Assembly: GCA_964394435.1 (NCBI GenBank)
Contig: CAYMXN010000002.1
Span: forward strand, 14,196 to 78,195
Source of the DNA: an uncultured Candidatus Saccharibacteria bacterium
Lineage (GTDB): Bacteria; Patescibacteriota; Minisyncoccia; UBA6257; 1-14-0-10-44-23
DNA length: 64,000 bases
Direction: 5' to 3'
The notes under the pieces: model-generated
Told to the model about the DNA's origin: nothing
The model's database searches: none
Seen by the model: only the letters and a program-made list of their open reading frames with translations
Program-made: the position numbers and the translations under genes
Shown: positions 12,321 to 64,000 of the stretch, in pieces
Position numbering within the stretch: position 1 is the stretch's first letter
How the letters are laid out: every line of letters starts with the position of its first letter

Positions 12321-12587
12321 ATGACTCGCGAAGAATTCCTTTCGCTCCTTTCGGAGCTGTACAAGAGCGGGAAGATCAAGGCGACCCTCGGACTCCGCAA
12401 GGGGTTCGATCGTGGGACGATTCTCCTGCGTAAGTCAGGCGACGAGGACTGCCACCTCTCTACCGGAACGGTGGTGGTGTTCATCGCCAAGTTCCTCAAC
12501 CCGGACAAGCCGAGCTGGCTCTGCATGGCCTACGTCAACGCGGGCAAGGACATCGACCTCTCCCCCGAGGACTCGACCGCGGCCTAG
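12321..12587 (+). CDS. hypothetical protein, GC-rich cassette A (88 aa)
   Basis: Promoter-like TTGACT-17-TAATAC at about 12266-12295 and GGAGG 6 nt before the ATG. The ORF is GC-rich (about 60 percent) and is followed by a hairpin terminator. Confidence 0.55.
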   Translation: MTREEFLSLLSELYKSGKIKATLGLRKGFDRGTILLRKSGDEDCHLSTGTVVVFIAKFLNPDKPSWLCMAYVNAGKDIDLSPEDSTAA

Positions 12588-13467: not shown

Positions 13468-13941
13468 CTAGCGAGTTACCGAGATCGTCTGTCCGAGCTC
13501 TGCCGATGGAGCAGAAACCGTCACGCGACCAGTCGTACCACCGGTCTGACTGACGTAGTAGCCGGAGTTGTATGAGCTCGTCGAGGTCCAAGCAGCATTC
13601 GCAGCCGATGGGTCAAACGGCATAGATGGAATATACGTGTCTACTAAACAAGGACCGATATTGTAGCCACCCGAAGACGCCATAAGACTCGAGCTAGCTG
13701 GAATTGCCGATCCGCAAGTAAAGACACCACGGTTATCAGCCATATTTTGGCCAATAGCGTTAAGGATCGCGTTCACGTTCGCAGAGCGCTGCGTGTTGCG
13801 AGCCTGGGCAAACTGACGGGCTGGGTTCAAAGCTACGATGACGACAGACGCCAAGATAGCGATGATACCGATTACTACTAATAACTCAATAAGCGTAAAA
13901 CCCTTCGACTGACTCAGGACGATGCCTTTTTGTTTGTTCAT
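13468..13941 (-). CDS. pilA: type IV pilin (major pilin paralog 1, extended leader)
   Basis: Class III signal peptide MNKQKGIVLSQSKG/FTLIELLVVIGIIAILA with Glu at +5. Divergent C-terminal domain. Confidence 0.85.
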   Translation of the reverse strand: MNKQKGIVLSQSKGFTLIELLVVIGIIAILASVVIVALNPARQFAQARNTQRSANVNAILNAIGQNMADNRGVFTCGSAIPASSSLMASSGGYNIGPCLVDTYIPSMPFDPSAANAAWTSTSSYNSGYYVSQTGGTTGRVTVSAPSAELGQTISVTR

Positions 13942-13997
13942 ATGGTAGAAATTATATCATATTCTGTTCAATTCCCTATCTAGGCTTATCCACAAAC

Positions 13998-14026
13998 AAA
14001 AAGAGCCCGTTGGGCTCTTTTTGTTT
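13998..14026 (-). terminator. intrinsic terminator after pilin gene 2
   Basis: AAAGAGCCCG-TTG-GGCTCTTTTTG. Confidence 0.6.
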
Positions 14027-14034
14027 GCTCATGA

Positions 14035-14484
14035 CTAGCGGCTAACGGAAATTACCTGGCCCAACTCTTGAGCTGGGGCGGCAACCGTTACGCGACCACT
14101 GGTCGCATCACGCAAAACTGTGTAACCAGTCTTGTATGAGCTCGTCGAGGTCCAAGCAGCATCTGCAGCTGATGGGTCAAACGGCATAGATGGAAGGTAG
14201 GTCGTGACTAAGCAAGAAGCGATGTCGTAACCACCTGACGAAGCCATCTCTGTCGCGGTTGATGGCAAAGCGCCGGCACCACACGTCCAGTTACCACGGT
14301 TATCGGCGATATTCTGACCGATAGCGTTAAGGATCGCGTTAATGTTCGCAGAGCGCTGCGTGTTGCGAGCCTGGGCAAACTGACGGGCTGGGTTCAAAGC
14401 TACGATGACGACAGACGCCAAGATAGCGATGATACCGATAACCACGAGAAGTTCGATGAGGGTGAAACCCTTTTGTTTGTTCAT
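14035..14484 (-). CDS. pilA: type IV pilin (major pilin paralog 2)
   Basis: MNKQKG/FTLIELLVVIGIIAILASVVIVALNPARQFAQARNTQRSAN. 97 nt are identical to paralog 1. Confidence 0.88.
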   Translation of the reverse strand: MNKQKGFTLIELLVVIGIIAILASVVIVALNPARQFAQARNTQRSANINAILNAIGQNIADNRGNWTCGAGALPSTATEMASSGGYDIASCLVTTYLPSMPFDPSAADAAWTSTSSYKTGYTVLRDATSGRVTVAAPAQELGQVISVSR

Positions 14485-24575: not shown

Positions 24576-24989
24576 ATGAGGTGTACTTTGAAGCGTTCCT
24601 TTCTGCTCGCACTCGCGCTGATCGTGATGGCACTCGGCTTCCTGAACTCCCCGCTGGTCGAGCCGGCCAACGCTGGCGGCTTCACCATGCTGCTGCCGAA
24701 CACCCCGGTGTTCTCGATTGGGGTCTGGAGTCTGGAGACCGACGACTTCAAGTCGGTGGTCGTCCCTGCGGACCGGGCCGCCGACCTCTGCGCGGCGCTG
24801 GGCATCTCCATAAGCCAGGGCACGTTTAGCACGGCGGCCCAGGTCGTCACACTCAACCCGAACGCCACGGCGATCGTGACGTGCGATTGTCAGCCCACCC
24901 AGGGCCTATCCACGTACTGGGGAGTCCAGAGTACGTGCTGGCAGGACCAGTACGCACAGTTCTCTTTCGAGCAGGTCAACACACGCTGA
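24576..24989 (+). CDS. secreted Cys-containing small protein, GC-rich cassette B
   Basis: Signal peptide (..LLALALIVMALGFLNSPLVEPANA), mature domain with CDC...C...C. GC is about 62 percent. Terminator follows. The start could instead be the TTG at 24588. Confidence 0.5.
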   Translation: MRCTLKRSFLLALALIVMALGFLNSPLVEPANAGGFTMLLPNTPVFSIGVWSLETDDFKSVVVPADRAADLCAALGISISQGTFSTAAQVVTLNPNATAIVTCDCQPTQGLSTYWGVQSTCWQDQYAQFSFEQVNTR

Positions 24990-35878: not shown

Positions 35879-36562
35879 CTACCCCTTGCCCCCTGGAGGA
35901 GGCGCGAAGGCGGCGATCGGAGTCCAGCCGAGCAACTTGTCACCTGGCTTGGACCCCTCCGGACCCTGGATCATCGGGAGCGGATCGGTCCGCTGCCCGA
36001 AGTTGAGCTCGAAGCCCGTCGCCAGACGCGAGATGAGCACGTACTCCTTCTCCTGCCCCACCGGAGCCGTGGGCAGGACCGTCGCCCCGTTGAGGACCCA
36101 GGCGCGGCGCTTGTCGCACGTGCCGACGTTGCCGCAGACCTTGACCCAGCCCGCCTCGCCGACCTGCAGCGTCGCCACCGTGAGGTGGTAGAACTGCGAG
36201 GGAACGACGGCCGGGACCGGCTTGGACGACTCGCTGGGCGACTTCATCGCCGGCACCGTCGGGCAGTCCATGTCCGACTGCGGGAGACCCGGTACGGTCG
36301 GAGCCATGAGCCACTCGTTGAAGCCCGAGGCCTCCTTGGAGTTCGGCGAGGACGTGAACGTCTTCACCGCCTGCTTCGTCTCCTTGTCGTCGCCGCTGTT
36401 CCAGCAGAGGCCGACGATGATGACGATGATCAGGACGATGATACCCCCGATCGCCACGAGGCGACCGCGGGTGATCCCCCCGGGCACCTCGTGCGGGACG
36501 GGGTCGCCGCCGGACGAAGCCGGGGCGTGGGGGTCGTGGGAATCGTGGGAATCGGCGGACAC
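35879..36562 (-). CDS. single-pass membrane protein, very GC-rich cassette E (about 66 percent GC)
   Basis: His/Asp-rich cytoplasmic N-terminus, TM helix LVAIGGIIVLIIVIIVGLCW, Pro/Cys-containing ectodomain. AGGAGG 5 nt before a GTG. Strong promoter immediately upstream. Confidence 0.55.
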   Translation of the reverse strand: MSADSHDSHDPHAPASSGGDPVPHEVPGGITRGRLVAIGGIIVLIIVIIVGLCWNSGDDKETKQAVKTFTSSPNSKEASGFNEWLMAPTVPGLPQSDMDCPTVPAMKSPSESSKPVPAVVPSQFYHLTVATLQVGEAGWVKVCGNVGTCDKRRAWVLNGATVLPTAPVGQEKEYVLISRLATGFELNFGQRTDPLPMIQGPEGSKPGDKLLGWTPIAAFAPPPGGKG

Positions 36563-36600
36563 AGACACCTCCTTATTGGACTAGAGACATAGCCGTTTTG

Positions 36601-36640
36601 GCTTTTACTATAATAGCATACTATTTATATAAAGTCAATA
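36601..36640 (-). promoter_or_regulatory. near-consensus sigma70 promoter (TTGACT-17-TATTAT) driving cassette E
   Basis: Minus strand reads TTGACTttatataaatagtatgcTATTATagt, about 35 nt before the RBS. Confidence 0.55.
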
Positions 36641-36744
36641 GTTCGGGCAAAGGCGGCAATTCGAACATACCCCCTTCGACTTCCTATCTCAGGCCATTCG
36701 GCTCTGAAAGCTTCAGGCTCGATGAGGTCATTTCCCTTTGGAAA

Positions 36745-36980
36745 ATGAAATAAAAAGCAGCGCCGAAGGAAGGTCCTTCTGCGCTGCGGAGAGAAAGCCG
36801 GGTGACTCTTTGGTTTGCTTTGGCCTGGGAAATGGGGATGTGGAGGTCGAGGTCCGCAGGGACGCCCGACGAAAGCCTTAGCTCACCGCTAAGCCACCCG
36901 GAAAAGCGGTATCGCCGAGGGTTTGGAGACTACCCTCTTTGATGTACTCAAAGAGTACCCTTCCTCCGAAGGCTCGTCAA
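36745..36980 (-). other. structured noncoding region downstream of ftsX (about 235 nt) ending in an intrinsic terminator
   Basis: Multiple nested inverted repeats (CCGGGTG...CACCCGG, GCTTAGC..GCTAAG, GTCCCTGCGGAC). Terminal hairpin CAGCGC-N17-GCGCTG plus CTTTTTATTT. Confidence 0.4.
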
Positions 36981-37889
36981 CTAGACTTTGAGGTAGCGCC
37001 TGATAGCGATCCAACTACTGATAATACCGAGACCACAGCCGGCTAAGATGAGATATCCAAACAATTGAAATAGATTTGAGTAGAAATACACTTCGATATT
37101 AACCTCGGGTATAACTGCAGCAAAATATGGCGAGGCGAAGTTGATTGCCGGAGCGGCGATAAGCATCGTAAAGACGGCTCCAAATACTCCGTACAAGATT
37201 CCGTTTACAATATATGGCCCTTTGATAAAGGTGTTAGACCCTCCGACTAAACGCATAATCGCGATCTCTTCTCGATTGCTGTAAATCGCCAGACGAATCG
37301 TGTTGAATGCGACAAGACAAGCGGCGATGGCGATAAATACAGCGAGAACAAATCCAACTTTATTGACCGTATCAATAATCTTGTTGAGGCGCTCGATCGC
37401 TTTTTGGTTTTGGGCGTAGGTAATTTTCTCGACAATTGATTTAAAGTTGTCGTTTTCTAAATATGAGGCGATGATTGGATAATCCTTTGTGTCGTTCGCT
37501 TTAATGTTTACCGAGGCACGCAACGGATTAGCACTTAACTCCTGAAGCGCCTGACTGATGGTCGGGTCTTCTTTGTGGTTCTCTTTAAAAATTTCAAGCG
37601 CTTTGTCGCGCGAGATATACTCGACGCTCTTTACCTCCGGGAGTTGCTCGAGTGCTTTTTCGATTTTCAAAATATCATCTTCTGGAGCGGCAACTTTGAA
37701 ATACACGGCGATGTCTATTTTGTCGCGTAATGAGTCGGTAGCGGTCTTAGTTAACACATCAAACATCGTAAGTCCGTTGAATAAGAGTAGCGCCAATACC
37801 ATAACCACGATGGTCGCGATTGAAAGTGAGCTGTTACGCCAAAAGCTCTGGAAGCCGTATTTAATCATTCGTAATAGTCCGGTAAGCAT
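36981..37889 (-). CDS. ftsX: cell division permease FtsX
   Basis: 4-TM FtsX topology with a large first periplasmic loop. Follows ftsE. Confidence 0.88.
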   Translation of the reverse strand: MLTGLLRMIKYGFQSFWRNSSLSIATIVVMVLALLLFNGLTMFDVLTKTATDSLRDKIDIAVYFKVAAPEDDILKIEKALEQLPEVKSVEYISRDKALEIFKENHKEDPTISQALQELSANPLRASVNIKANDTKDYPIIASYLENDNFKSIVEKITYAQNQKAIERLNKIIDTVNKVGFVLAVFIAIAACLVAFNTIRLAIYSNREEIAIMRLVGGSNTFIKGPYIVNGILYGVFGAVFTMLIAAPAINFASPYFAAVIPEVNIEVYFYSNLFQLFGYLILAGCGLGIISSWIAIRRYLKV

Positions 37890-40151: not shown

Positions 40152-40721
40152 TTAACGCGTCAGTAGCTCACCTTCTTGCCATTGATAACTGGCGAGGAAG
40201 ATACTGACATCTGCGTCTTTACGCTTCTGTAGTATCCAATCATTTAGATTGGTTTTTTGCAAGATAAGCGAACTGCTTAAGATATTTCGCTGCGCCTGTG
40301 GAACTAAAATAAGGCGGGTAAAATCTCCGGGCATCAGACCATAGAGCTCGTTGATCGCTGGCGCGAGAGCTTGCGAGCTGGTTGTATTACCAATCATTTT
40401 CGAAAGGTCTTCTTCTCCCTGTTTGCCAAGCGTCAGAAATCCAGCCTCTACGACCTTATTTTCAATAAGCGTATCAAGACTTACTCGACGGAGTTCGATT
40501 AAAAACTTCGGATCAGCTAATTTTTCTTTTTCAGCAACAGAAGCGTTTCTCGAGGCTTTCTCGTAATAGTGATAGGCGGCATCAAAATGCTTCTGTACAT
40601 CTCCCGCCCAGATCATCTCACCGTTTACGCTTGCAACTGGATATAAATTAAAAACACTCGCAAAGTATACAATCCCGAAAATACCAACAAGCGCGGCAAG
40701 AATAATCGCGGTTCGTTTCAT
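40152..40721 (-). CDS. hypothetical secreted/membrane-anchored protein (189 aa)
   Basis: N-terminal TM/signal MKRTAIILAALVGIFGIVYFASV. The start codon abuts the end of IR element copy 2. Confidence 0.5.
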   Translation of the reverse strand: MKRTAIILAALVGIFGIVYFASVFNLYPVASVNGEMIWAGDVQKHFDAAYHYYEKASRNASVAEKEKLADPKFLIELRRVSLDTLIENKVVEAGFLTLGKQGEEDLSKMIGNTTSSQALAPAINELYGLMPGDFTRLILVPQAQRNILSSSLILQKTNLNDWILQKRKDADVSIFLASYQWQEGELLTR

Positions 40722-40725
40722 TGCG

Positions 40726-40853
40726 CTAGAGGCAATCCTGATGTTGTATAAGCGACCGGTAGGAGTTCATAGGTATTGATATATTGTAGCGTATATTCGT
40801 ATGTAGCATCGGCGGCAGAGCCGCTCTGCCTCTAACGGGATTCATTGGTAGTT
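40726..40853. repeat. inverted-repeat-bounded element, copy 2 (GCGCTAGAGG ... CCTCTAACGGG)
   Basis: About 128 bp and about 90 percent identical to copy 3 in direct orientation. The right terminus contains the stop codon of the ftsB-like gene. Confidence 0.6.
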
Positions 40854-41113
40854 GAAGGCACGAGAATAAAGAGCTTCTCGTCTGGCTTCTTGTAATTAAA
40901 CTGGGCGGTAGATTCTTTGGCAAGATTTGGATCTTGACGATAGTACTCAAGGTCCTGCTCAAGCTTAGCATTTTCCGCCTCGAGCGCCTTCATCTGCAGA
41001 CCCAACTCGTCTGAACGCTTAGTTAGCTCATTTTTCTGATCAATAAGCTGGTATAGCTGAAAGCTTGCAAAGACTAGAATAGCAGCTAAAAACAATATGA
41101 GAAAGAATTTCAT
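40832..41113 (-). CDS. FtsB/DivIC-like septum formation initiator (TM plus coiled coil, 93 aa)
   Basis: N-terminal TM helix followed by a coiled coil (ELGLQMKALEAENAKLEQDLEYYRQD). The gene is bracketed by IR element copies 2 and 3. Confidence 0.55.
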   Translation of the reverse strand: MKFFLILFLAAILVFASFQLYQLIDQKNELTKRSDELGLQMKALEAENAKLEQDLEYYRQDPNLAKESTAQFNYKKPDEKLFILVPSTTNESR

Positions 41114-41235
41114 CCCGTTAGAGGCAACTCTTATATTGTATAAGCGACCGGTAGGAGTTCATGGGTATTGATATATTGTAGCGTATATTCGTATATAGCA
41201 CGGGTGGCAGAGCCGCCCTGCCCCTAACGGGATGA
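41107..41235. repeat. inverted-repeat-bounded element, copy 3 (CCCGTTAGAGG ... CCCCTAACGGG)
   Basis: On the minus strand the terminus CCTCTAACGGG is directly followed by the ATG of the ftsB-like gene. The internal sequence carries TACAAT/TATAAG -10-like boxes. Confidence 0.6.
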
Positions 41236-48910: not shown

Positions 48911-49291
48911 ATGCGCAAGCACCAGGCTGGTTATACGGGAACTGAAGTAATCATCACTTTCGCCCTCATCGCCCTTTTAGCGTCGGCGGTGGCCGGGCTT
49001 CTAAGCGTGACTCGAAGATACAAAGAGCAGACTGAACGAACGACTGCTCTCGCAGGCTGGCTCACTGCCAACAACCCCGAGATGAACTTCTCGGCGAAGG
49101 TTGGTGATACGTGCGGATGCGATCACGGCAAGACCGTCCCCTATCAGCTCGAGCTGATGGACAAGGTCTCGGACAAGTTCGCTCCCGGACTCATCTTCGT
49201 CGTCGAGCAACCGAAAGAACGCCCACTCCAGAAGGGGCAGCTCGTCACGCTCCACCTAGTCGACGGCAAGATCGAAGTCGAAAGCCCTTGA
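48911..49291 (+). CDS. prepilin-like small protein, GC-rich cassette D
   Basis: N-terminus AGYTGTEVIITFALIALLASAVAGLL has Gly then Glu at +5 and a hydrophobic helix, a class III signal-like pattern. TTGACA-17-TAAAAAT promoter, GGAG RBS, about 58 percent GC. Terminator follows. Confidence 0.5.
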   Translation: MRKHQAGYTGTEVIITFALIALLASAVAGLLSVTRRYKEQTERTTALAGWLTANNPEMNFSAKVGDTCGCDHGKTVPYQLELMDKVSDKFAPGLIFVVEQPKERPLQKGQLVTLHLVDGKIEVESP

Positions 49292-53922: not shown

Positions 53923-53961
53923 GTGCAGGTATCCTAGCAGATAGGCATTAAGAATTCAATA

Positions 53962-54004
53962 ATATTTAAAAATAAACGGGGCGCGACTAACTAGTCACGC
54001 CCCG
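53962..54004 (-). terminator. intrinsic terminator after membrane protein gene 53987-54577
   Basis: GGGGCG-N16-CGCCCC with a T-rich stretch on the minus strand. Confidence 0.55.
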
Positions 54005-54577
54005 AGAACGATCCGCCATTAACCCCACCGCTGCATGCAACATCAGGCAATTGACCGGATAGACGAAATCCTGCCATTGCCCTCGCCATCGCATAACAAT
54101 GACAACGATACTGAGAACATACGCCACACTCCAAATGAACCACGGAAGAGGCTTTTCACTTGTTCGGTCGAGCCTTATGCTCCGCAGGGTTGGCGCAAAC
54201 GAGATAGCGATCGAACCCTGAAGGATTAGGTTCGCGTACGTAGCAGAGTTGTATTGCCACCACGCAAAGCCGGCAATGATGCCAACTCCGAGTGCCGCCC
54301 CATCCCAAGGATCGATTTTTGAAAGCTTCCCTTTCGCGAGAGCAAAGATAAAGGTGAAAAGGCAGGCAGTCGAACTCGCCAATGGAAGAATGCTCTTCAC
54401 CCAATCGCCGCTCATCGCGCGGTAACTTCCGAGATTCAGAAACGTAAGAAACACCCACAGTGTCCAAGTCGCCGTATTAGGACGAGAAACGCCCTTGAGC
54501 ATCTGTCTATTGTAAAGAACAAACGCTACCACATGCATCACCCCAGCAATCACGCCAAGAAAAAGATCGGTAGACAT
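53987..54577 (-). CDS. hypothetical polytopic membrane protein (196 aa)
   Basis: 6 to 7 predicted TM helices. Confidence 0.5.
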   Translation of the reverse strand: MSTDLFLGVIAGVMHVVAFVLYNRQMLKGVSRPNTATWTLWVFLTFLNLGSYRAMSGDWVKSILPLASSTACLFTFIFALAKGKLSKIDPWDGAALGVGIIAGFAWWQYNSATYANLILQGSIAISFAPTLRSIRLDRTSEKPLPWFIWSVAYVLSIVVIVMRWRGQWQDFVYPVNCLMLHAAVGLMADRSRGVTS

Positions 54578-54753
54578 GATTACCTTTCTCCCAGTGAAAT
54601 ACTGAGGCTTGGAGAAAAATGTCAGTAAATATTATACAATACTTCTCAATTTTTGCAATTCCTAACTAAGAATTCAACCAGATGCGTTTTAAAATAATAA
54701 CGCCCCGAACCTCTTGCGAAGGCGCGGGGCAGGAACGAGGCGAGACGCGAAGA

Positions 54754-55104
54754 CTAGGGCCGCTGACCAACCAGCTGGGCCACCAACCTCTTCGTCTTCG
54801 GATCGCCGCGGCACTCGAAGCTCCACGTCGGCTCGCCGTGACGAATGAGATTGTTCGGAGGAAGCTGGATCTGGATGGATCCTTCCAAGCCCTGAACGAT
54901 CGCATTCGCAGAAACGTGGACGTCCGGGTAGATGAGGATGCTGAGAACCACGCGCCTCTCCGAGGCATCATGACCCTCCATCTCGAAGTTCATCTGCATG
55001 AACATCGAACTGAGCTCGAGTTCACGCCCTGGGATGAGGGGCAGGCACGCGCGGACCATCTCGAGCGCGAACACAACACTTCTGCTGAGTTGGATCTTGG
55101 ACAC
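54754..55104 (-). CDS. hypothetical cytoplasmic protein, GC-rich cassette F (116 aa, GTG start)
   Basis: Perfect TTGACA-17-TATAAT promoter upstream, GGAG 7 nt before the GTG, GC-rich hairpin terminator downstream. The (+) overlapping ORF reads as an Arg-rich antisense artefact. Confidence 0.5.
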   Translation of the reverse strand: MSKIQLSRSVVFALEMVRACLPLIPGRELELSSMFMQMNFEMEGHDASERRVVLSILIYPDVHVSANAIVQGLEGSIQIQLPPNNLIRHGEPTWSFECRGDPKTKRLVAQLVGQRP

Positions 55105-55170
55105 GAGAAACTCCTGTCAAAGGAGGCGCATGGGCGAGCTGCCCACACGAATGCCGTCAAAGCATTAGAT

Positions 55171-55201
55171 ATATTATACTCTTAATTATGATAAGTGTCA
55201 A
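55171..55201 (-). promoter_or_regulatory. consensus sigma70 promoter (TTGACA-17-TATAAT) for cassette F
   Basis: Minus strand reads TTGACActtatcataattaagagTATAATat. Confidence 0.6.
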
Positions 55202-55256
55202 TAGTAAATAGCCCTTGTTTCAAGGTTTTTGTAGCTTCCTAGTACTAAATAAGCTA

Positions 55257-56561
55257 CTAGTCTACCCTCTGAATATCCGCACCGAGACTGCGAAGGCGTT
55301 CATCAAGATACTGATAGCCACGGTCGATTTCTTCAACACCGGTAATGGTCGACGGACCTTCGGCGATAAGTGCGGCGATGACATTTACCATACCGCTGCG
55401 TAAGTCCTTAACGGTTGTGTCGGCGGCTTTCAGTTTGGTCGGACCACTGATAATCGCGCTGTGTGGAAAGTTTTGTCCGTTGAATCGGCAAGTTAGCTCA
55501 CCCATACATTTAGAGAGCACTTTGATATCCGCGCCCATGCTATTTAAATCTTTCGTGTAGCTAAAACGGTCTTCGTAAATTGTTTCGTGAATAACCGAGA
55601 GGCCAGCGGCTTGAGTAAGCACAACTGAAAATGGCTGCTGCCAGTCAGTCATAAATCCCGGGTGAGTGTCGGTTTCGATTTCGATACCCTTGAAGTGTTT
55701 TAGATTTTTCGGTCGATAAAAAACGATACCATCTTCGCGCACCTCGTACTCCCCTCCGATACGGCGTACCGCGTTTAAAAAGGTGATGAGGTCGTGCTGG
55801 CGCGCGTCTTTAACCAGCACCGGCCCACCACAGGCGAGACCGAGACAGGCGAAACTTACCGCTTCGTTGCGGTCCGGGATAATCTTGTGCTTTACGCCAT
55901 GTAGGCGCTCAACACCCTCAACGCTAATAACACGATTAGCTCCGCGCTCGATAATCGCGCCCATATTTTGGAGCATCTTAATCAAGTCAACGATTTCCGG
56001 CTCAACGGCGCAGTTGTTAATCACCGTGCGCCCTTTCGCGAGTACGGCGGCGAGAATCGTATTTTCGGTAGCGCCGACGCTCGGAAACTTTAAATCGATA
56101 CGCGTACCTTTGAGGCCGTTTTTCGCAATCGCATAATAACTGTTTTCACGCACTTCGATTTGCGCACCCATCGCGGTTAACGCAGCGAGGTGTAAATCAA
56201 CCGGACGTGGGCCGATCTTGTCCCCGCCTAAAAACGGTACTTCGGCTTCGCCAACGCGTGCGAGCAAAGGACCGAGCGCGAGAATTGGAATACGATTACG
56301 ACGAGAGAGTGAAACTACGCGATGATTTTTTATTTTCGGCGTGCTAATGGTGACCACCGACCCGTCACGCTTCACATTGCTACCAATCGCCTCGCAAAGC
56401 TCGGTAACAATTTCCGTCTCACCAATATTTGGAGCGTTTTCGATTACACACTCGTCTTCAGTTAAGAGCGTAGCGATCATCGCCTTACTGATACTGTTTT
56501 TCGCGCCAGCTAAGGTGATTTCTCCGGTTAGATTTTTTCCACCGTTAATAACGAATCTCAT
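55257..56561 (-). CDS. murA: UDP-N-acetylglucosamine 1-carboxyvinyltransferase
   Basis: 434 aa. Active-site loop with Cys (LACGGPV... / KNSISKAM.. pattern) and EPSP-synthase fold repeats. Confidence 0.93.
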   Translation of the reverse strand: MRFVINGGKNLTGEITLAGAKNSISKAMIATLLTEDECVIENAPNIGETEIVTELCEAIGSNVKRDGSVVTISTPKIKNHRVVSLSRRNRIPILALGPLLARVGEAEVPFLGGDKIGPRPVDLHLAALTAMGAQIEVRENSYYAIAKNGLKGTRIDLKFPSVGATENTILAAVLAKGRTVINNCAVEPEIVDLIKMLQNMGAIIERGANRVISVEGVERLHGVKHKIIPDRNEAVSFACLGLACGGPVLVKDARQHDLITFLNAVRRIGGEYEVREDGIVFYRPKNLKHFKGIEIETDTHPGFMTDWQQPFSVVLTQAAGLSVIHETIYEDRFSYTKDLNSMGADIKVLSKCMGELTCRFNGQNFPHSAIISGPTKLKAADTTVKDLRSGMVNVIAALIAEGPSTITGVEEIDRGYQYLDERLRSLGADIQRVD

Positions 56562-56622
56562 ATAGCTCTATAGTACTTTACTCCTATGTACTAAGTACAT
56601 AGCCTGGTGGTATTCTATATAT

Positions 56623-56976
56623 ATGATTTCACGTATTATCCGCTCGCTGATCGCTAATGGTATCGCGTTTGCGCTCGCCGCCTACTTTTTACCGGGATTT
56701 GTTCTTTCGGGAGATATTGTCTCCATAGCAGCGCTTGTCCTTGTCTTTACCGCGATTAACGCGTTTATCTATCCAATTATCAAGCTTGTCTTGAGTCCGA
56801 TCATCTTTTTCACTCTCGGACTCTTTACGATTGTCATTCACGCAGGAATCCTCTATATCATTGACATTTACTCTACAAACATTAGTATAAGTGGACCAAT
56901 TACCCTGCTCTACGCGACCCTGATTATTACCGCAGTTAACATCCTGTTCGGCGTAGGCAGTAAACTATCTAAGTAA
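56623..56976 (+). CDS. phage-holin-4-2 / DUF360 (YvlD-like) family membrane protein
   Basis: 117 aa, 4 TM helices. The N-terminal pattern LIANGIAFALAAYFLPGFVLSG matches YvlD-like proteins. Confidence 0.55.
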   Translation: MISRIIRSLIANGIAFALAAYFLPGFVLSGDIVSIAALVLVFTAINAFIYPIIKLVLSPIIFFTLGLFTIVIHAGILYIIDIYSTNISISGPITLLYATLIITAVNILFGVGSKLSK

Positions 56977-60203: not shown

Positions 60204-62315
60204 ATGGCACCAAAGCCACCGAAAATTAGGCCTCGTCCGCAGCGAACCGTGATTACCAATGACGTTTCTCGTGGACCATCGGCCCACCCTGCCCCAAAGC
60301 AGGACGCACCAAAACACGTCGCCCATTCAGCAAAAGCGAAAGATTTCGACCAAGTGAAGGATGCGATGTTTTATAAACCACAAGCTTCGTCAGCACCGAT
60401 TGATCCGAGCGCTATTGTCGTTCGCAAGCGAACTGACCCAGAGCACTCTTCGCATCGCCACGCACCACACCAACACGGTGCGGCCCGTCCACACGGACAC
60501 GGCGACGCGAGTCGGCGCACAGAAAAGATGTACCGCATGTCTTCAGCGATTAAGCGCAACCCGATTGCTGACAAGAAACTTTACGCTCAAGAGAACTCAC
60601 TCAAAGGACATGAGCAAAAAGACGAACACGGCACTACCGGCGGACTCAAGCGCGACACACTCTACTACGTCCCGCTCGGAGGACTCGAAGAGGTTGGACG
60701 CAACTCGATGTTTTTCGAATACAACGATGAGATCGTTATTGTTGATATGGGTATTCAGTTCCCGGTTGAAGAAACGCCGGGCGTAGACTGGATTATTCCA
60801 AACGTCAGCTACCTCGAAAAGAAAAAACAGAATATCAAAGCACTTATTATTACCCACGCACACTACGACCACTTTGGCGCCGTGCCGTATGTACTTGAGA
60901 AACTTGGTAATCCGACCATTTATGGAACTGCACTTATTCGTGCTGTTTTGGAAAAGCGCTTAGCTGAAATTCCTAACGCACCGAAAATGAAGTTCCACGA
61001 AATCAAGAATCACGACAAGATTAAGCTTTCTGAAAACTTCACCTCCGAGTTCTTTGGCGTAAGCCACACCGTACCGGATACGACCGGCGTCGCGCTCCAC
61101 ACCCCTGCCGGACTGATGGTGCACTTTGCCGACTTCCGCTTGGACTACAACGAAGAAGGAACGGCAGAAAATCTTCAAGAGTTTGAGCGCCTCGGTAAGA
61201 TGAACGTGCATACGCTCTGCATCGACTCAACTAACGCTTGGGAGTCTGGACACTCGGTTTCCGAGAAGATTGTTGAAGCGAACTTGGAAAAGATGATGCT
61301 TGAAGCCGAGGGACGTATTATTCTCTCGACCTTTGCTTCGATGATCACGCGTATCGCCGAGATCGTAAAAATCGCCGAGAAAATTGGGCGCAAAGTTATG
61401 ATTAACGGGCGCAGTATGAAAGAAAACCTGGAGATTGCGCGCAGCCTTGGTTATGTGAAGTTTAAACCAGGTAGTGTTGTTCCAATTGAAGACATTGCTA
61501 AGTATAAAGACGACAAAATTTTGATCCTCTCTACTGGAGCACAGGGTCAAGAAAATGCTGGACTTATGCGCATCGTGAATGGCGAACACCGCTTTGTGAA
61601 GGTAAAAGCTGGCGACACCGTCATCTTTTCTTCCTCGGTCATCCCGGGTAACGAGCGTGGCGTACAGACGCTTAAAGATAACTTTGCCCGTCAGGGAGCG
61701 ACAGTTATTACAAACAACGACCTCGACATTCACTCCTCCGGACACGCTCCGGGAGCAGACCTGGGCCTCGTCGCACAACTCTGTAAGCCAAAGTTTGTTA
61801 TTCCAGTTCACGGCCACTACTTTATGCGCGCGTCTAACGTGCTCAACATGAAGCGTATTGGCATCGCAAAAGAACGCGTCATTTTGATGGATAACGGACA
61901 GATCGCTGAAGTTACTCCAGATAATGTAAAAATCACTGATAAAACTGTTGATGCGTTTTACGTACTCGTCGACGGTCTCGGCGTCGGTGATGTCGAAGCG
62001 GTTGTACTTCGCGATCGCAAACTCCTCTCACAAGAAGGAATGGTGGTTATTATCTCGACCGTCGACCGTCGCACGGGTAGGTTAATGAAAAATCCAGACG
62101 TGATTAGCCGTGGATTTATTTACCTCAAAGACCATACCTCGCTCATTGATGAGATTCGCACAAAGATTCGCAATATTCTTACGCAAACCCAGCATAAGAA
62201 ACAGGCTCCAGAAAGCGACTACATCAAGGGACTGATTCGCGATCAAGTTGGGCTCTTCCTGTACAACAAGACGATGCGTCGTCCGATGATTCTTCCGGTA
62301 ATTATCGAAGTCTAG
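60204..62315 (+). CDS. rnj: ribonuclease J (beta-CASP metallo-beta-lactamase) with an extension of about 150 aa that is basic/His-rich
   Basis: HAHYDHFGAVPY (HxHxDH), beta-CASP motifs, C-terminal domain. The first 150 aa are low-complexity and the true start is uncertain. Confidence 0.88.
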   Translation: MAPKPPKIRPRPQRTVITNDVSRGPSAHPAPKQDAPKHVAHSAKAKDFDQVKDAMFYKPQASSAPIDPSAIVVRKRTDPEHSSHRHAPHQHGAARPHGHGDASRRTEKMYRMSSAIKRNPIADKKLYAQENSLKGHEQKDEHGTTGGLKRDTLYYVPLGGLEEVGRNSMFFEYNDEIVIVDMGIQFPVEETPGVDWIIPNVSYLEKKKQNIKALIITHAHYDHFGAVPYVLEKLGNPTIYGTALIRAVLEKRLAEIPNAPKMKFHEIKNHDKIKLSENFTSEFFGVSHTVPDTTGVALHTPAGLMVHFADFRLDYNEEGTAENLQEFERLGKMNVHTLCIDSTNAWESGHSVSEKIVEANLEKMMLEAEGRIILSTFASMITRIAEIVKIAEKIGRKVMINGRSMKENLEIARSLGYVKFKPGSVVPIEDIAKYKDDKILILSTGAQGQENAGLMRIVNGEHRFVKVKAGDTVIFSSSVIPGNERGVQTLKDNFARQGATVITNNDLDIHSSGHAPGADLGLVAQLCKPKFVIPVHGHYFMRASNVLNMKRIGIAKERVILMDNGQIAEVTPDNVKITDKTVDAFYVLVDGLGVGDVEAVVLRDRKLLSQEGMVVIISTVDRRTGRLMKNPDVISRGFIYLKDHTSLIDEIRTKIRNILTQTQHKKQAPESDYIKGLIRDQVGLFLYNKTMRRPMILPVIIEV

Positions 62316-63356: not shown

Positions 63357-64000
63357 ATGGCTTCCCAACCCGCACTGAAGATCGACAACCAGATCGTTCT
63401 AATTCCGCGCGTACGGATTCGGCCCTTCAAAGACCAGCCGCGTACCTACTTTGATCCCGATGCCCTTGAGGAGCTCGCAAATAGCATCTCCGAGGTTGGA
63501 CAGCTAACCCCCGTACTCGTTCGCCGCATCGATGGCGACCCTGAGCATGACTATCAGCTTATCGCCGGGCAACGACGCTGGCATGCGTGTGAGGCTGCGG
63601 GTGTGGCGTTGATGCGTGCCGAGATCAAGGACGTTAAGAGCGAAGAAGAGGCTTATCTCCTTTCTGCAGTTGAGAACTTTGCTCGCCTTGACCTTTCGGA
63701 CATCGAGACGGCTCGGACACTCAAGAAGGTCAGGGATCAGCAAAACTGGACCGCTGATCGACTCGCTCGTGCTTTCGGTCGAACGAGATCTTGGGTTACC
63801 CAGCGTCTCCAACTTCTCACGCTACACCCTGGCGTTCAGGCAATGATGGAGCCGAGGCCGGGCGTCCCAGAAAATCAGCGCATCACCTTCTCGTTTGCGC
63901 TTCGTCTCGCCGGTATCCGCCGTGATCTCCAGCTGGATATTGCGCGTACCGTCATCGAACGTGGAATGAAACTCAATCAGGCGACCGCCTTTTTGAAGCG
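63357..64000 (+). CDS. ParB/Srx-like nuclease-domain protein (partial, continues past window end)
   Basis: IRPFKDQPRTYFDPDALEELANSI...LIAGQRRWHACEAAG is the ParB N-terminal box with the GxRR motif. AGGAGG RBS 7 nt upstream. Confidence 0.7.
   Translation, partial: MASQPALKIDNQIVLIPRVRIRPFKDQPRTYFDPDALEELANSISEVGQLTPVLVRRIDGDPEHDYQLIAGQRRWHACEAAGVALMRAEIKDVKSEEEAYLLSAVENFARLDLSDIETARTLKKVRDQQNWTADRLARAFGRTRSWVTQRLQLLTLHPGVQAMMEPRPGVPENQRITFSFALRLAGIRRDLQLDIARTVIERGMKLNQATAFLK

Follow-up and report, generated by a model that had tools for sequence, protein, structure and literature searches.

How does a small gene of deviant composition come to stand, with expression signals of its own, between two core genes of a bacterial chromosome, and what would control its expression? 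The question is raised by cassette F, which lies on the minus strand between murA and mreB in the 64-kb stretch of DNA analysed here (the window). Genomes of the Candidate Phyla Radiation (CPR, Patescibacteria) are tiny and rich in unannotated genes, and little is known of their gene regulation. With moderate confidence we read F as a monocistronic unit that is expressed autonomously from a Saccharibacteria-like (CPR/Patescibacteria) chromosome and whose structured leader would gate translation. The features on which this reading is based are collected in Table 1.

A preliminary description of this region had reported a promoter, a Shine-Dalgarno (SD) sequence, a GTG start, a 116-aa open reading frame (ORF) and a hairpin terminator, and all of these were found on the minus strand where it had placed them. 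The terminator (54730-54691) falls just beyond the interval of 54754-55201 originally given for the cassette, and a spacer of about 25 nt separates its hairpin from the stop codon of F. The 64 kb contain two perfect TTGACA-N16-18-TATAAT sites where shuffles predict 0.02, and the second one drives rpmA. Orthologs of F were recovered from three relatives, at locus L001 (GCA_964523595.1) and at loci L002 and L003 of JGI metagenomes, with L004 as an identical copy, and both promoter hexamers are unchanged in L001, L002 and L003. The promoter and the gene's own terminator support the earlier view of a stand-alone transcription unit with strong signals. The GC-richness reported for the cassette was also borne out: the ORF has a GC content of 0.59 and a GC content at third codon positions (GC3) of 0.78, compared with a mean GC3 of 0.52 (sd 0.10) for the 77 ORFs of the window and ordinary values for rpmA (0.51), murA (0.52) and mreB (0.54). 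The promoter signals suggest that F is among the more strongly expressed genes, and it is plausible, as far as such signals predict expression, that F is a strongly expressed accessory gene.

The complementary strand holds a 167-aa ORF, and the preliminary description had allowed that this plus-strand frame might be the real gene. Across the window, L001 and L002 the 351-nt ORF of F contains neither a stop codon nor an indel. Its ratio of nonsynonymous to synonymous divergence (dN/dS, Nei-Gojobori) is 0.32-0.44, the lowest among the six frames, and substitutions at sense codon positions 1, 2 and 3 number 29, 21 and 37. The plus-strand ORF, which has no promoter or SD and spans both the promoter and the terminator of F, was ruled out as a gene by its higher dN/dS and as a codon-opposite shadow of the sense frame. 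Both frames are open in all three diverged orthologs, the antisense frame because it is codon-opposite and the sense strand lacks TTA, CTA and TCA codons, as expected at a GC3 of 0.78. The part encoded between the GTG and the first ATG can be aligned with the N-termini of remote relatives whose genes begin with ATG; this confirms the GTG start and makes the JGI call (P0003, 101 aa) too short. Judged from these substitution patterns, the minus-strand 116-aa ORF codes for a protein and is subject to moderate purifying selection.

It could be argued that the transcript acts chiefly as a structured non-coding RNA, or that the plus-strand ORF is real and the 116-aa ORF fortuitous. The full 476-nt transcript folds better than its shuffles (z = -3.9), the dS of F (0.64) is below that of murA (0.99), and the antisense frame is open in every ortholog, all of which would agree with such a view. 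We nevertheless give it hardly any credence, since the sense frame has the lowest dN/dS, changes are commonest at its third codon position and rarest at its second, the lack of three codons explains the open antisense frame, and promoter, SD and terminator are all oriented to the minus strand. In addition, the protein remains recognisable at 24-42% identity across the CPR where the DNA can no longer be aligned, its AlphaFold2 model is confident, and no Rfam family matches. A known RNA at this position, such as RNase P RNA, tmRNA or 6S RNA, was likewise rejected, because Rfam and ARAGORN gave no match and the codon evidence favours a protein.

The preliminary description had called the gene an orphan, which stands with respect to curated families and not with respect to homologs. 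F had no match at E<=0.1 in Pfam, PHROGs, PADLOC or NCBIfam, the NCBIfam scan taking in F plus six relatives. A word-indexed search returned only three close clusters. When 1.84 billion cluster representatives were searched exhaustively with a HMMER profile, 16 proteins came up at E<1e-3 (P0004 at 2.8e-17), and a second indexed search with a wider alignment added 2 further members, giving about 20 related clusters in all. The family shares the motifs xSKSVxFAIEMVRA, GMWMQMNME, GEWxSG and WxFxC, and W94 is invariant. Its closest genome is Ca. Saccharibacteria, the named relatives are Ca. Paceibacterota and Ca. Liptonbacteria, and the family contigs, of 37-55% GC, bear CPR-typical neighbours such as T4SS_pilin. 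From these named sources and neighbours it follows that the family is rare, patchy and restricted to Patescibacteria. So far as the searched collections represent it, it is found only in CPR/Patescibacteria and appears fast-evolving and accessory-like, which fits the earlier description of F as an accessory gene. No relatives were found in viral or plasmid searches. The neighbour genes of family members share no similarity and PADLOC gave no match, so nothing pointed to a toxin-antitoxin or defence system, and because no neighbour gene is conserved across the family the unit is taken to be monocistronic.

The AlphaFold2 model of F, built from a 21-sequence alignment, has a predicted local distance difference test score (pLDDT) of 86.6 and a predicted template modelling score (pTM) of 0.82, and shows an N-terminal helix (residues 8-23) packed against a six-stranded antiparallel sheet. 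A profile search of PDB sequences gave no match at E<=10. With a fold match defined as Foldseek E<=1e-3 or a template modelling (TM) score >=0.5 to a confident model, Foldseek gave nothing significant in the PDB (best E 0.22, TM<=0.44) or in BFVD (best E 0.10). The protein has an isoelectric point (pI) of 6.8 and no transmembrane segment (maximum KD19 1.63), and together with the globular helix-plus-sheet model these properties are consistent with the cytoplasmic location proposed earlier. Full-text literature searches returned no prior description of the family, of its leader or of GC-rich islets in Saccharibacteria. F thus adds an undescribed small-protein family of the CPR, whose fold is predicted with confidence and is unmatched in PDB or BFVD.

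The leader of F is 62 nt long and folds better than its shuffles (z = -2.9). Every relative examined has a near-consensus promoter, with TTGAC(A/T/C) or close to it, 17 nt, and TATAAT or close to it, often with a TGn extended -10, and an arrangement of three hairpins (H1, H2 and H3) ending at the start codon is common to all 12 distinct family loci. For an unguided MAFFT alignment of the 12 leaders (A4), RNAalifold predicted three helices with compensatory changes in 11 of 14 pairs. A covariance model (R1) scores the 12 loci at 45-68 bits, by construction, and in a search of the 64-kb window the F leader was its sole match, with no second copy. In the R1 alignment 90.4% of cells are standard pairs, compared with 31-44% when partners are slid by 1-3 columns, and double-sided changes are present in 15 of 19 pairs. 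The covariation score is 0.511 versus 0.263 for shuffled alignments, and none of 500 shuffles reaches it. H1 has double-sided changes in all 6 of its pairs and 95.8% of its cells paired across the 12 loci. H3 is also 95.8% paired and hardly varies, because it contains the SD, in which AGGAG pairs with a perfect Watson-Crick CUCCU anti-SD; the isolated hairpin is predicted at -4.8 to -8.0 kcal/mol across the family.

At the gathering threshold Rfam found only 4 tRNAs in the whole window, its E-value mode gave chance-level matches only in 54500-55300, with no ROSE or fourU, and on the loci of nine relatives it matched tRNA and tmRNA only. The leader, a covariation-supported motif absent from Rfam, would be a candidate post-transcriptional control element in the CPR. 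Within one leader the H1 loop equals the H3 loop or departs from it by 1-2 bases, but the loops are distinct between lineages, the H1/H3 pairs being UUGAC/UUGAC in F, GUGAC/GUGAC in L010 and L022, GAGAC/GAGAC in L012 and CCGAU/CCGAU in L011. Altogether the two loops match at 39 of 45 positions, and permutation of H3 loops among lineages gives p ~3e-5 with phylogeny ignored. Five long-leader members carry an extra, very stable hairpin of 10-19 bp (H0), whose 3' arm doubles as the 5' arm of H1; H0 and H1 are therefore mutually exclusive, and in the modelled structures their alternation may act as a switch. A three-way switch was also considered, with the anti-SD pairing to the 3' arm of H1; it was seen in the minimum free energy (MFE) fold of L010 and not in the other long leaders, and was dropped. 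As a separate observation, the SD of the second, unrelated cassette that follows F in L001 lies in a small hairpin (UUCUCC-AAAA-GGAGAA, L001 5470-5527) just ahead of its ATG, and SD sequestration may be common among small units of this kind.

These features suggest how the unit might work. F would be transcribed at a high level, and its translation would, as our best guess, be gated by the opening or stabilising of the SD hairpin H3. H1, at the predicted 5' end, may additionally protect the mRNA in this RNase J-encoding organism; protection of mRNA by 5' stem-loops is established from Bacillus and holds in RNase J organisms. Because the H1 and H3 loops are near-identical within a leader and change together between lineages, we propose that they serve one trans-acting factor as twin operators. 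The most economical factor would be the fast-evolving protein encoded in cis, because a CPR-conserved partner would not require the loops to change. That the F protein represses its own translation via H1 and H3, a negative autoregulation, is speculative, and we put it forward as a tentative possibility. A fuller version makes the unit an expression homeostat, in which a protein of new fold binds two identical GAC-loop hairpins in its own mRNA, one of them with the SD, protein and loops co-evolve, and the unit moves among Patescibacteria, often beside tRNA genes; we regard this as a long shot.

Several points weigh against a leader gated in this way. H3 is supported by conservation and not by covariation, and at a modelled stability of -5 to -8 kcal/mol ribosomes may open it unaided. 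The covariation comes from 12 sequences of about 9 lineages, in an alignment fitted to the model and with phylogeny not accounted for, and the similarity of the H1 and H3 loops could come from shared ancestry of lineages or from another common partner. In the long leaders MFE folds favour the much stronger H0 over H1, so that H1 may fail to form in these. The promoter, transcription start and terminator of F are consensus predictions, and the protein is near-neutral, with no recognisable nucleic-acid-binding motif or structural analogue in the PDB or BFVD. The leader might instead be independent of any protein and join a 5' stabiliser to an SD hairpin that acts as an RNA thermometer or melts under stress, the likeness of the two loops being incidental or structural. 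SD-sequestering hairpins of -4.8 to -8.0 kcal/mol act as thermometers, and the modest stability of the SD hairpin, the position of H1 at the predicted 5' end in short-leader members and the RNase J gene nearby all agree with this. We consider it doubtful, since the leader matches neither ROSE, fourU nor any other Rfam family, its perfect Watson-Crick anti-SD is unlike the mismatched or U-rich pairing typical of thermometers, and such a model does not account for H1 and H3 loops that change in concert.

The preliminary description had further suggested that F was acquired, and one form of this idea is that F is a recent foreign islet from a high-GC donor, for example an actinobacterial host of a Saccharibacteria epibiont, which arrived with its own promoter and terminator. 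A GC3 of 0.78 against 0.52, the autonomy of the unit and the patchy distribution of the family are what such an import would leave, and the slot adjoining F is occupied by different genes in different strains. Moreover, tRNA genes lie just upstream at four of nine other family loci, and one locus lies beside a rolling-circle Rep gene. The shared position of F is at odds with recent acquisition. F follows murA in L001, L002 and L003 and precedes mreB in L002 and L004, so that its murA-mreB position and orientation are shared by three relatives whose orthologs have dS of 0.42-0.64 and GC3 of 0.76-0.80, with no sign of amelioration. No presence/absence polymorphism was seen among the loci. All detected homologs are on CPR-type contigs, and no candidate donor of high GC turned up outside them. 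Family genes are also richer in GC3 than their own locus in all 9 other family loci (gene GC3/locus GC of 0.78/0.51, 0.78/0.51, 0.57/0.37, 0.72/0.47, 0.59/0.45, 0.84/0.50, 0.81/0.50, 0.70/0.53 and 0.70/0.55), and high GC3 is therefore a maintained property of the family and not the fingerprint of a donor. A Pfam scan and the annotations, in the window and at the relatives' loci, gave no recombinase, integrase, transposase or phage gene among ORFs within about 5 kb, no att-like repeat of tRNA ends accompanies the unit, and phage and plasmid matches are absent. A foreign islet is thus improbable; recent acquisition in this lineage is not supported, and by these comparisons F appears to be vertically inherited here. 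GC3-rich single-gene islets in Saccharibacteria need not be recent imports, since the high GC3 of F travels with its family, and this raises the question of whether it is upheld by mRNA structure, recombination-linked GC bias or selection.

The variable part of the locus is the slot between the F terminator and mreB. In the window (53949-54690) it holds a gene for a 196-aa membrane protein, in L001 (5405-5995) a 129-aa ORF and in L002 (1327-1915) a 128-aa ORF. The extra promoter-ORF units of L001 and L002 are unrelated to F, differ from each other and end in a near-identical copy of the F terminator. The insert in the window is flanked by a repeated T-tract plus TTGAATTCTTA (54677-54667 and 53959-53949), and this flank also trails the last terminator copy in L001 and L002. 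Such an arrangement, seen in three haplotypes only, suggests a small hot spot in which the terminator or the adjoining flank recombines. One might go further and see F as a module of a local cassette-exchange system, integron-like or a recombination hot spot, with the terminator hairpin as recombination site; the second unit closed by a near-identical terminator in L001 and L002 and the different gene in the window slot agree with this, and the flank GGTTGAATTC includes GTTGAAT, which fits the integron GTTRRRY core by eye. Such a system is very unlikely here, because F itself is constant in all loci and only the adjoining slot varies among the three haplotypes seen, the cassettes bear their own promoters, and there is no integrase nearby. 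The exact terminator pattern occurs once in the window, and in 185,579 GTDB representative genomes it is confined to one Saccharibacteria contig with 2 local copies, in an uncultured Candidatus Saccharibacteria metagenome-assembled genome whose MurA is 98.4% identical to that of the window. A looser pattern gave four chance matches without a hairpin in JGI metagenomes and none in IMG/VR, that is, no true copy in JGI or viral contigs. The single window copy and the local-only GTDB copies also rule out the terminator as a genome-wide or mobile repeat.

Beyond this lineage, four of nine non-Saccharibacteria family loci are about 300-450 nt downstream of a tRNA gene (rough binomial P ~2e-5, assuming 45 tRNAs per Mb) and one is about 700 nt downstream of a tmRNA gene. 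Integration of the att type beside tRNA genes was rejected as direct repeats of tRNA ends were not found. In L021 (32-916 being the region concerned) the family member P0030 is about 2 kb from a REP_ORF2-G2P rolling-circle initiator gene, among ORFs without Pfam matches, and this may be a mobile-element context. In genomic context, the tRNA adjacency, the Rep neighbour and the patchiness fit occasional horizontal movement of the unit among CPR genomes, in the manner of a phage moron.

F evolves much faster than its neighbour. Its orthologs have 67-70% amino acid identity and dN of 0.14-0.23, compared with 98.4% identity and a dN of 0.014 for MurA, so that dN is about 16 times higher in F (0.23 vs 0.014). 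Its neighbours within 5 kb are housekeeping genes and include one group with an rseP-like M50 protease, frr, holB, a methyltransferase and mreB, another with murA, a holin-family membrane protein conserved in a relative, and secG, and further an SBP_bac_5 protein, a PGI-like SIS protein, RNase J (60204-62315) and a sigma-70 factor. Near murA, the stem of its terminator-like hairpin is retained in L002 (CCCTTAATATAAGGG) despite altered loop and arm bases (alignment A1). In the window a gap of only about 60 nt (56561-56623) separates the holin-family gene from murA, and L001 has an insert of about 1 kb between them (L001 2483-3543) with a GC-richer membrane ORF (GC3 0.63-0.68).

Table 1. Coordinates of cassette F, its leader, related loci and further GC3-outlier ORFs; positions refer to the window unless a locus (L) is named.
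Feature	Position	Strand	Remarks
F promoter TTGACA-17-TATAAT, sigma-70-type	55173..55201	minus	12/12 consensus matches; -35 TTGACA at 55201-55196, spacer 17 nt, -10 TATAAT at 55178-55173
Hairpin CCTTGAAACAAGG, 3' of the murA stop	55213..55225	minus	just upstream of F promoter; weak murA terminator
Leader hairpin H1, AAUGC-UUUGAC-GGCAUU	55150..55166	minus	fold; starts at predicted transcription start, ~7 nt past -10
Leader hairpin H2, CGUGUGGGC-agcuc-GCCCAUGCG	55127..55149	minus	fold; 8/9 pairs with double-sided changes
Leader hairpin H3, CUCCU-uugac-AGGAG	55111..55125	minus	3' arm is the SD, 55115-55111
SD AGGAG	55115-55111	minus	6 nt ahead of GTG
F coding sequence, 116 aa	54754..55104	minus	ORF 351 nt; GTG start, TAG stop (54756-54754)
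Intrinsic terminator: long GC-rich hairpin, GCAA tetraloop, then TTATTATTTT	54691..54730	minus	kept in orthologs
TTGAATTCTTA flank after terminator T-tract	54667..54677	minus	recurs at 53959-53949 after next gene's terminator
167-aa antisense ORF	54682..55185	plus	shadow frame of F; dN/dS 0.75-1.08
GC3-outlier ORF	12321-12587	plus	GC3 0.85
GC3-outlier ORF, secreted	24576-24989	plus	GC3 0.84
GC3-outlier ORF, membrane-anchored, 229 aa	35879-36568	minus	GC3 0.91
GC3-outlier ORF	48911-49291	plus	GC3 0.69
Long-form leaders with H0	L010 2270-2340, L012 2860-2945, L016 2835-2915, L021 2870-2950, L023 205-285		
tRNA/tmRNA-gene context of family members	L012 2556-2647, L016 2623-2787, L018 1-55, L023 1-54, L011 3891-4281		

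The window contains four other GC3-outlier ORFs, each with a promoter-like site, an SD and a hairpin terminator and none with a curated-family match. According to the preliminary description, F had the architecture of cassettes A, B, D and E, and a common mechanism of acquisition or a family of strongly expressed accessory genes was suggested. The layout of promoter, SD, ORF and terminator is indeed repeated, but it is generic to monocistronic genes and goes with no shared sequence, leader or terminator. The comparison of cassette proteins with each other that it had recommended was run as an all-against-all blastp of cassette and neighbour proteins and showed no similarity to F or among themselves; the other GC-rich cassettes have neither the F leader, to which alone R1 matches, nor the F terminator, which occurs once in the window. 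A shared origin was therefore rejected, and a common acquisition mechanism is not supported. An origin from an actinobacterial host was rejected as well, because the most GC-rich cassette, the 229-aa ORF at 35879-36568, has only four relatives, of 47-100% identity and restricted to the lineage. It is like F in that its only relatives, at 47-70% identity in this comparison, belong to its lineage. By composition and relatedness, small, fast-evolving and GC3-rich genes restricted to the lineage do form a real class in this genome.

Some further observations concern other parts of the window. A gene-free stretch of about 330 nt on the minus strand (36640-36975), downstream of the gene at 36981-37889, folds far better than its shuffles, with z = -4.5 versus -2.6 for the plus strand, and includes a hairpin of terminator type, GCAGCGCAGAAGGACCTTCCTTCGGCGCTGC and then TTTTTATTT; it has no match in Rfam and may be an unannotated structured RNA. 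From about 63357 a GC-rich plus-strand ORF with an AGGAGG SD extends past the window end (63357-64000), and the 102-aa minus-strand ORF at 63504-63812 is probably its shadow. Diverged direct repeats of 194 nt and 126 nt (82-88% identity, spacing about 565 nt) span two adjacent ORFs of about 150 aa at 13558-14472, and a repeat pair of 126 nt (89% identity, spacing 392 nt) lies at 40716-41233; both are probably tandem paralogs.

Among known systems, integron cassettes are, like the units here, short single-gene units split by a repeated imperfect hairpin, with variable genes beside a fixed point. In contrast to them, F and its neighbour cassettes have promoter-like sites of their own, no IntI-type integrase is present among the scanned or annotated ORFs within about 5 kb, and the F hairpin, judged without a formal attC model, is a canonical terminator with a T-tract that is repeated only locally. 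Phage morons are autonomous promoter-gene-terminator units of deviant composition in lambdoid prophages, known from the Juhala- and Hendrix-era literature. F resembles them as a single ORF with its own sigma-70 promoter and factor-independent terminator, both predicted from consensus, in its composition, which deviates from its flanks (GC3 0.78 vs 0.52 for murA and 0.54 for mreB), and in its patchy family and accessory-like product. Unlike a moron, F is located between the chromosomal core genes murA and mreB and not in a prophage, has no PHROG, phage or plasmid match and has neighbours that include secG, frr, holB, rseP-like and RNase J genes; it is syntenic in relatives and not variably present, and it carries a family-wide structured leader.

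Other parallels concern the leader. As in the 5' stabiliser stem-loops of the ermC and aprE type, the hairpin of the short leaders is at or within a few nt of the predicted start, and RNase J is encoded in the window, whereas the 5' end of the F family is a predicted one and the long-leader relatives have 70-90 nt ahead of this hairpin plus a competing hairpin. In SD-sequestering operators, such as ribosomal-protein leaders, the MS2 coat protein-replicase operator and ROSE/fourU, the SD is likewise the 3' arm of a small hairpin just before the start codon, and the F leader has in common with them conserved stem-loops, covarying upstream helices and an operator-like hairpin mimic upstream. It differs in that it matches no Rfam family, pairs its SD with a perfect Watson-Crick anti-SD unlike that of thermometers, and has a GAC-containing loop shared by H1 and H3 and co-varying between them, while the protein encoded in cis resembles no known RNA-binding fold in the PDB or BFVD. 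If the F protein acted on its own leader, the logic would be analogous to the autoregulation by the MS2 coat protein-operator pair or by ribosomal-protein leaders, and F would, on the features read here, be a translationally controlled small accessory gene.

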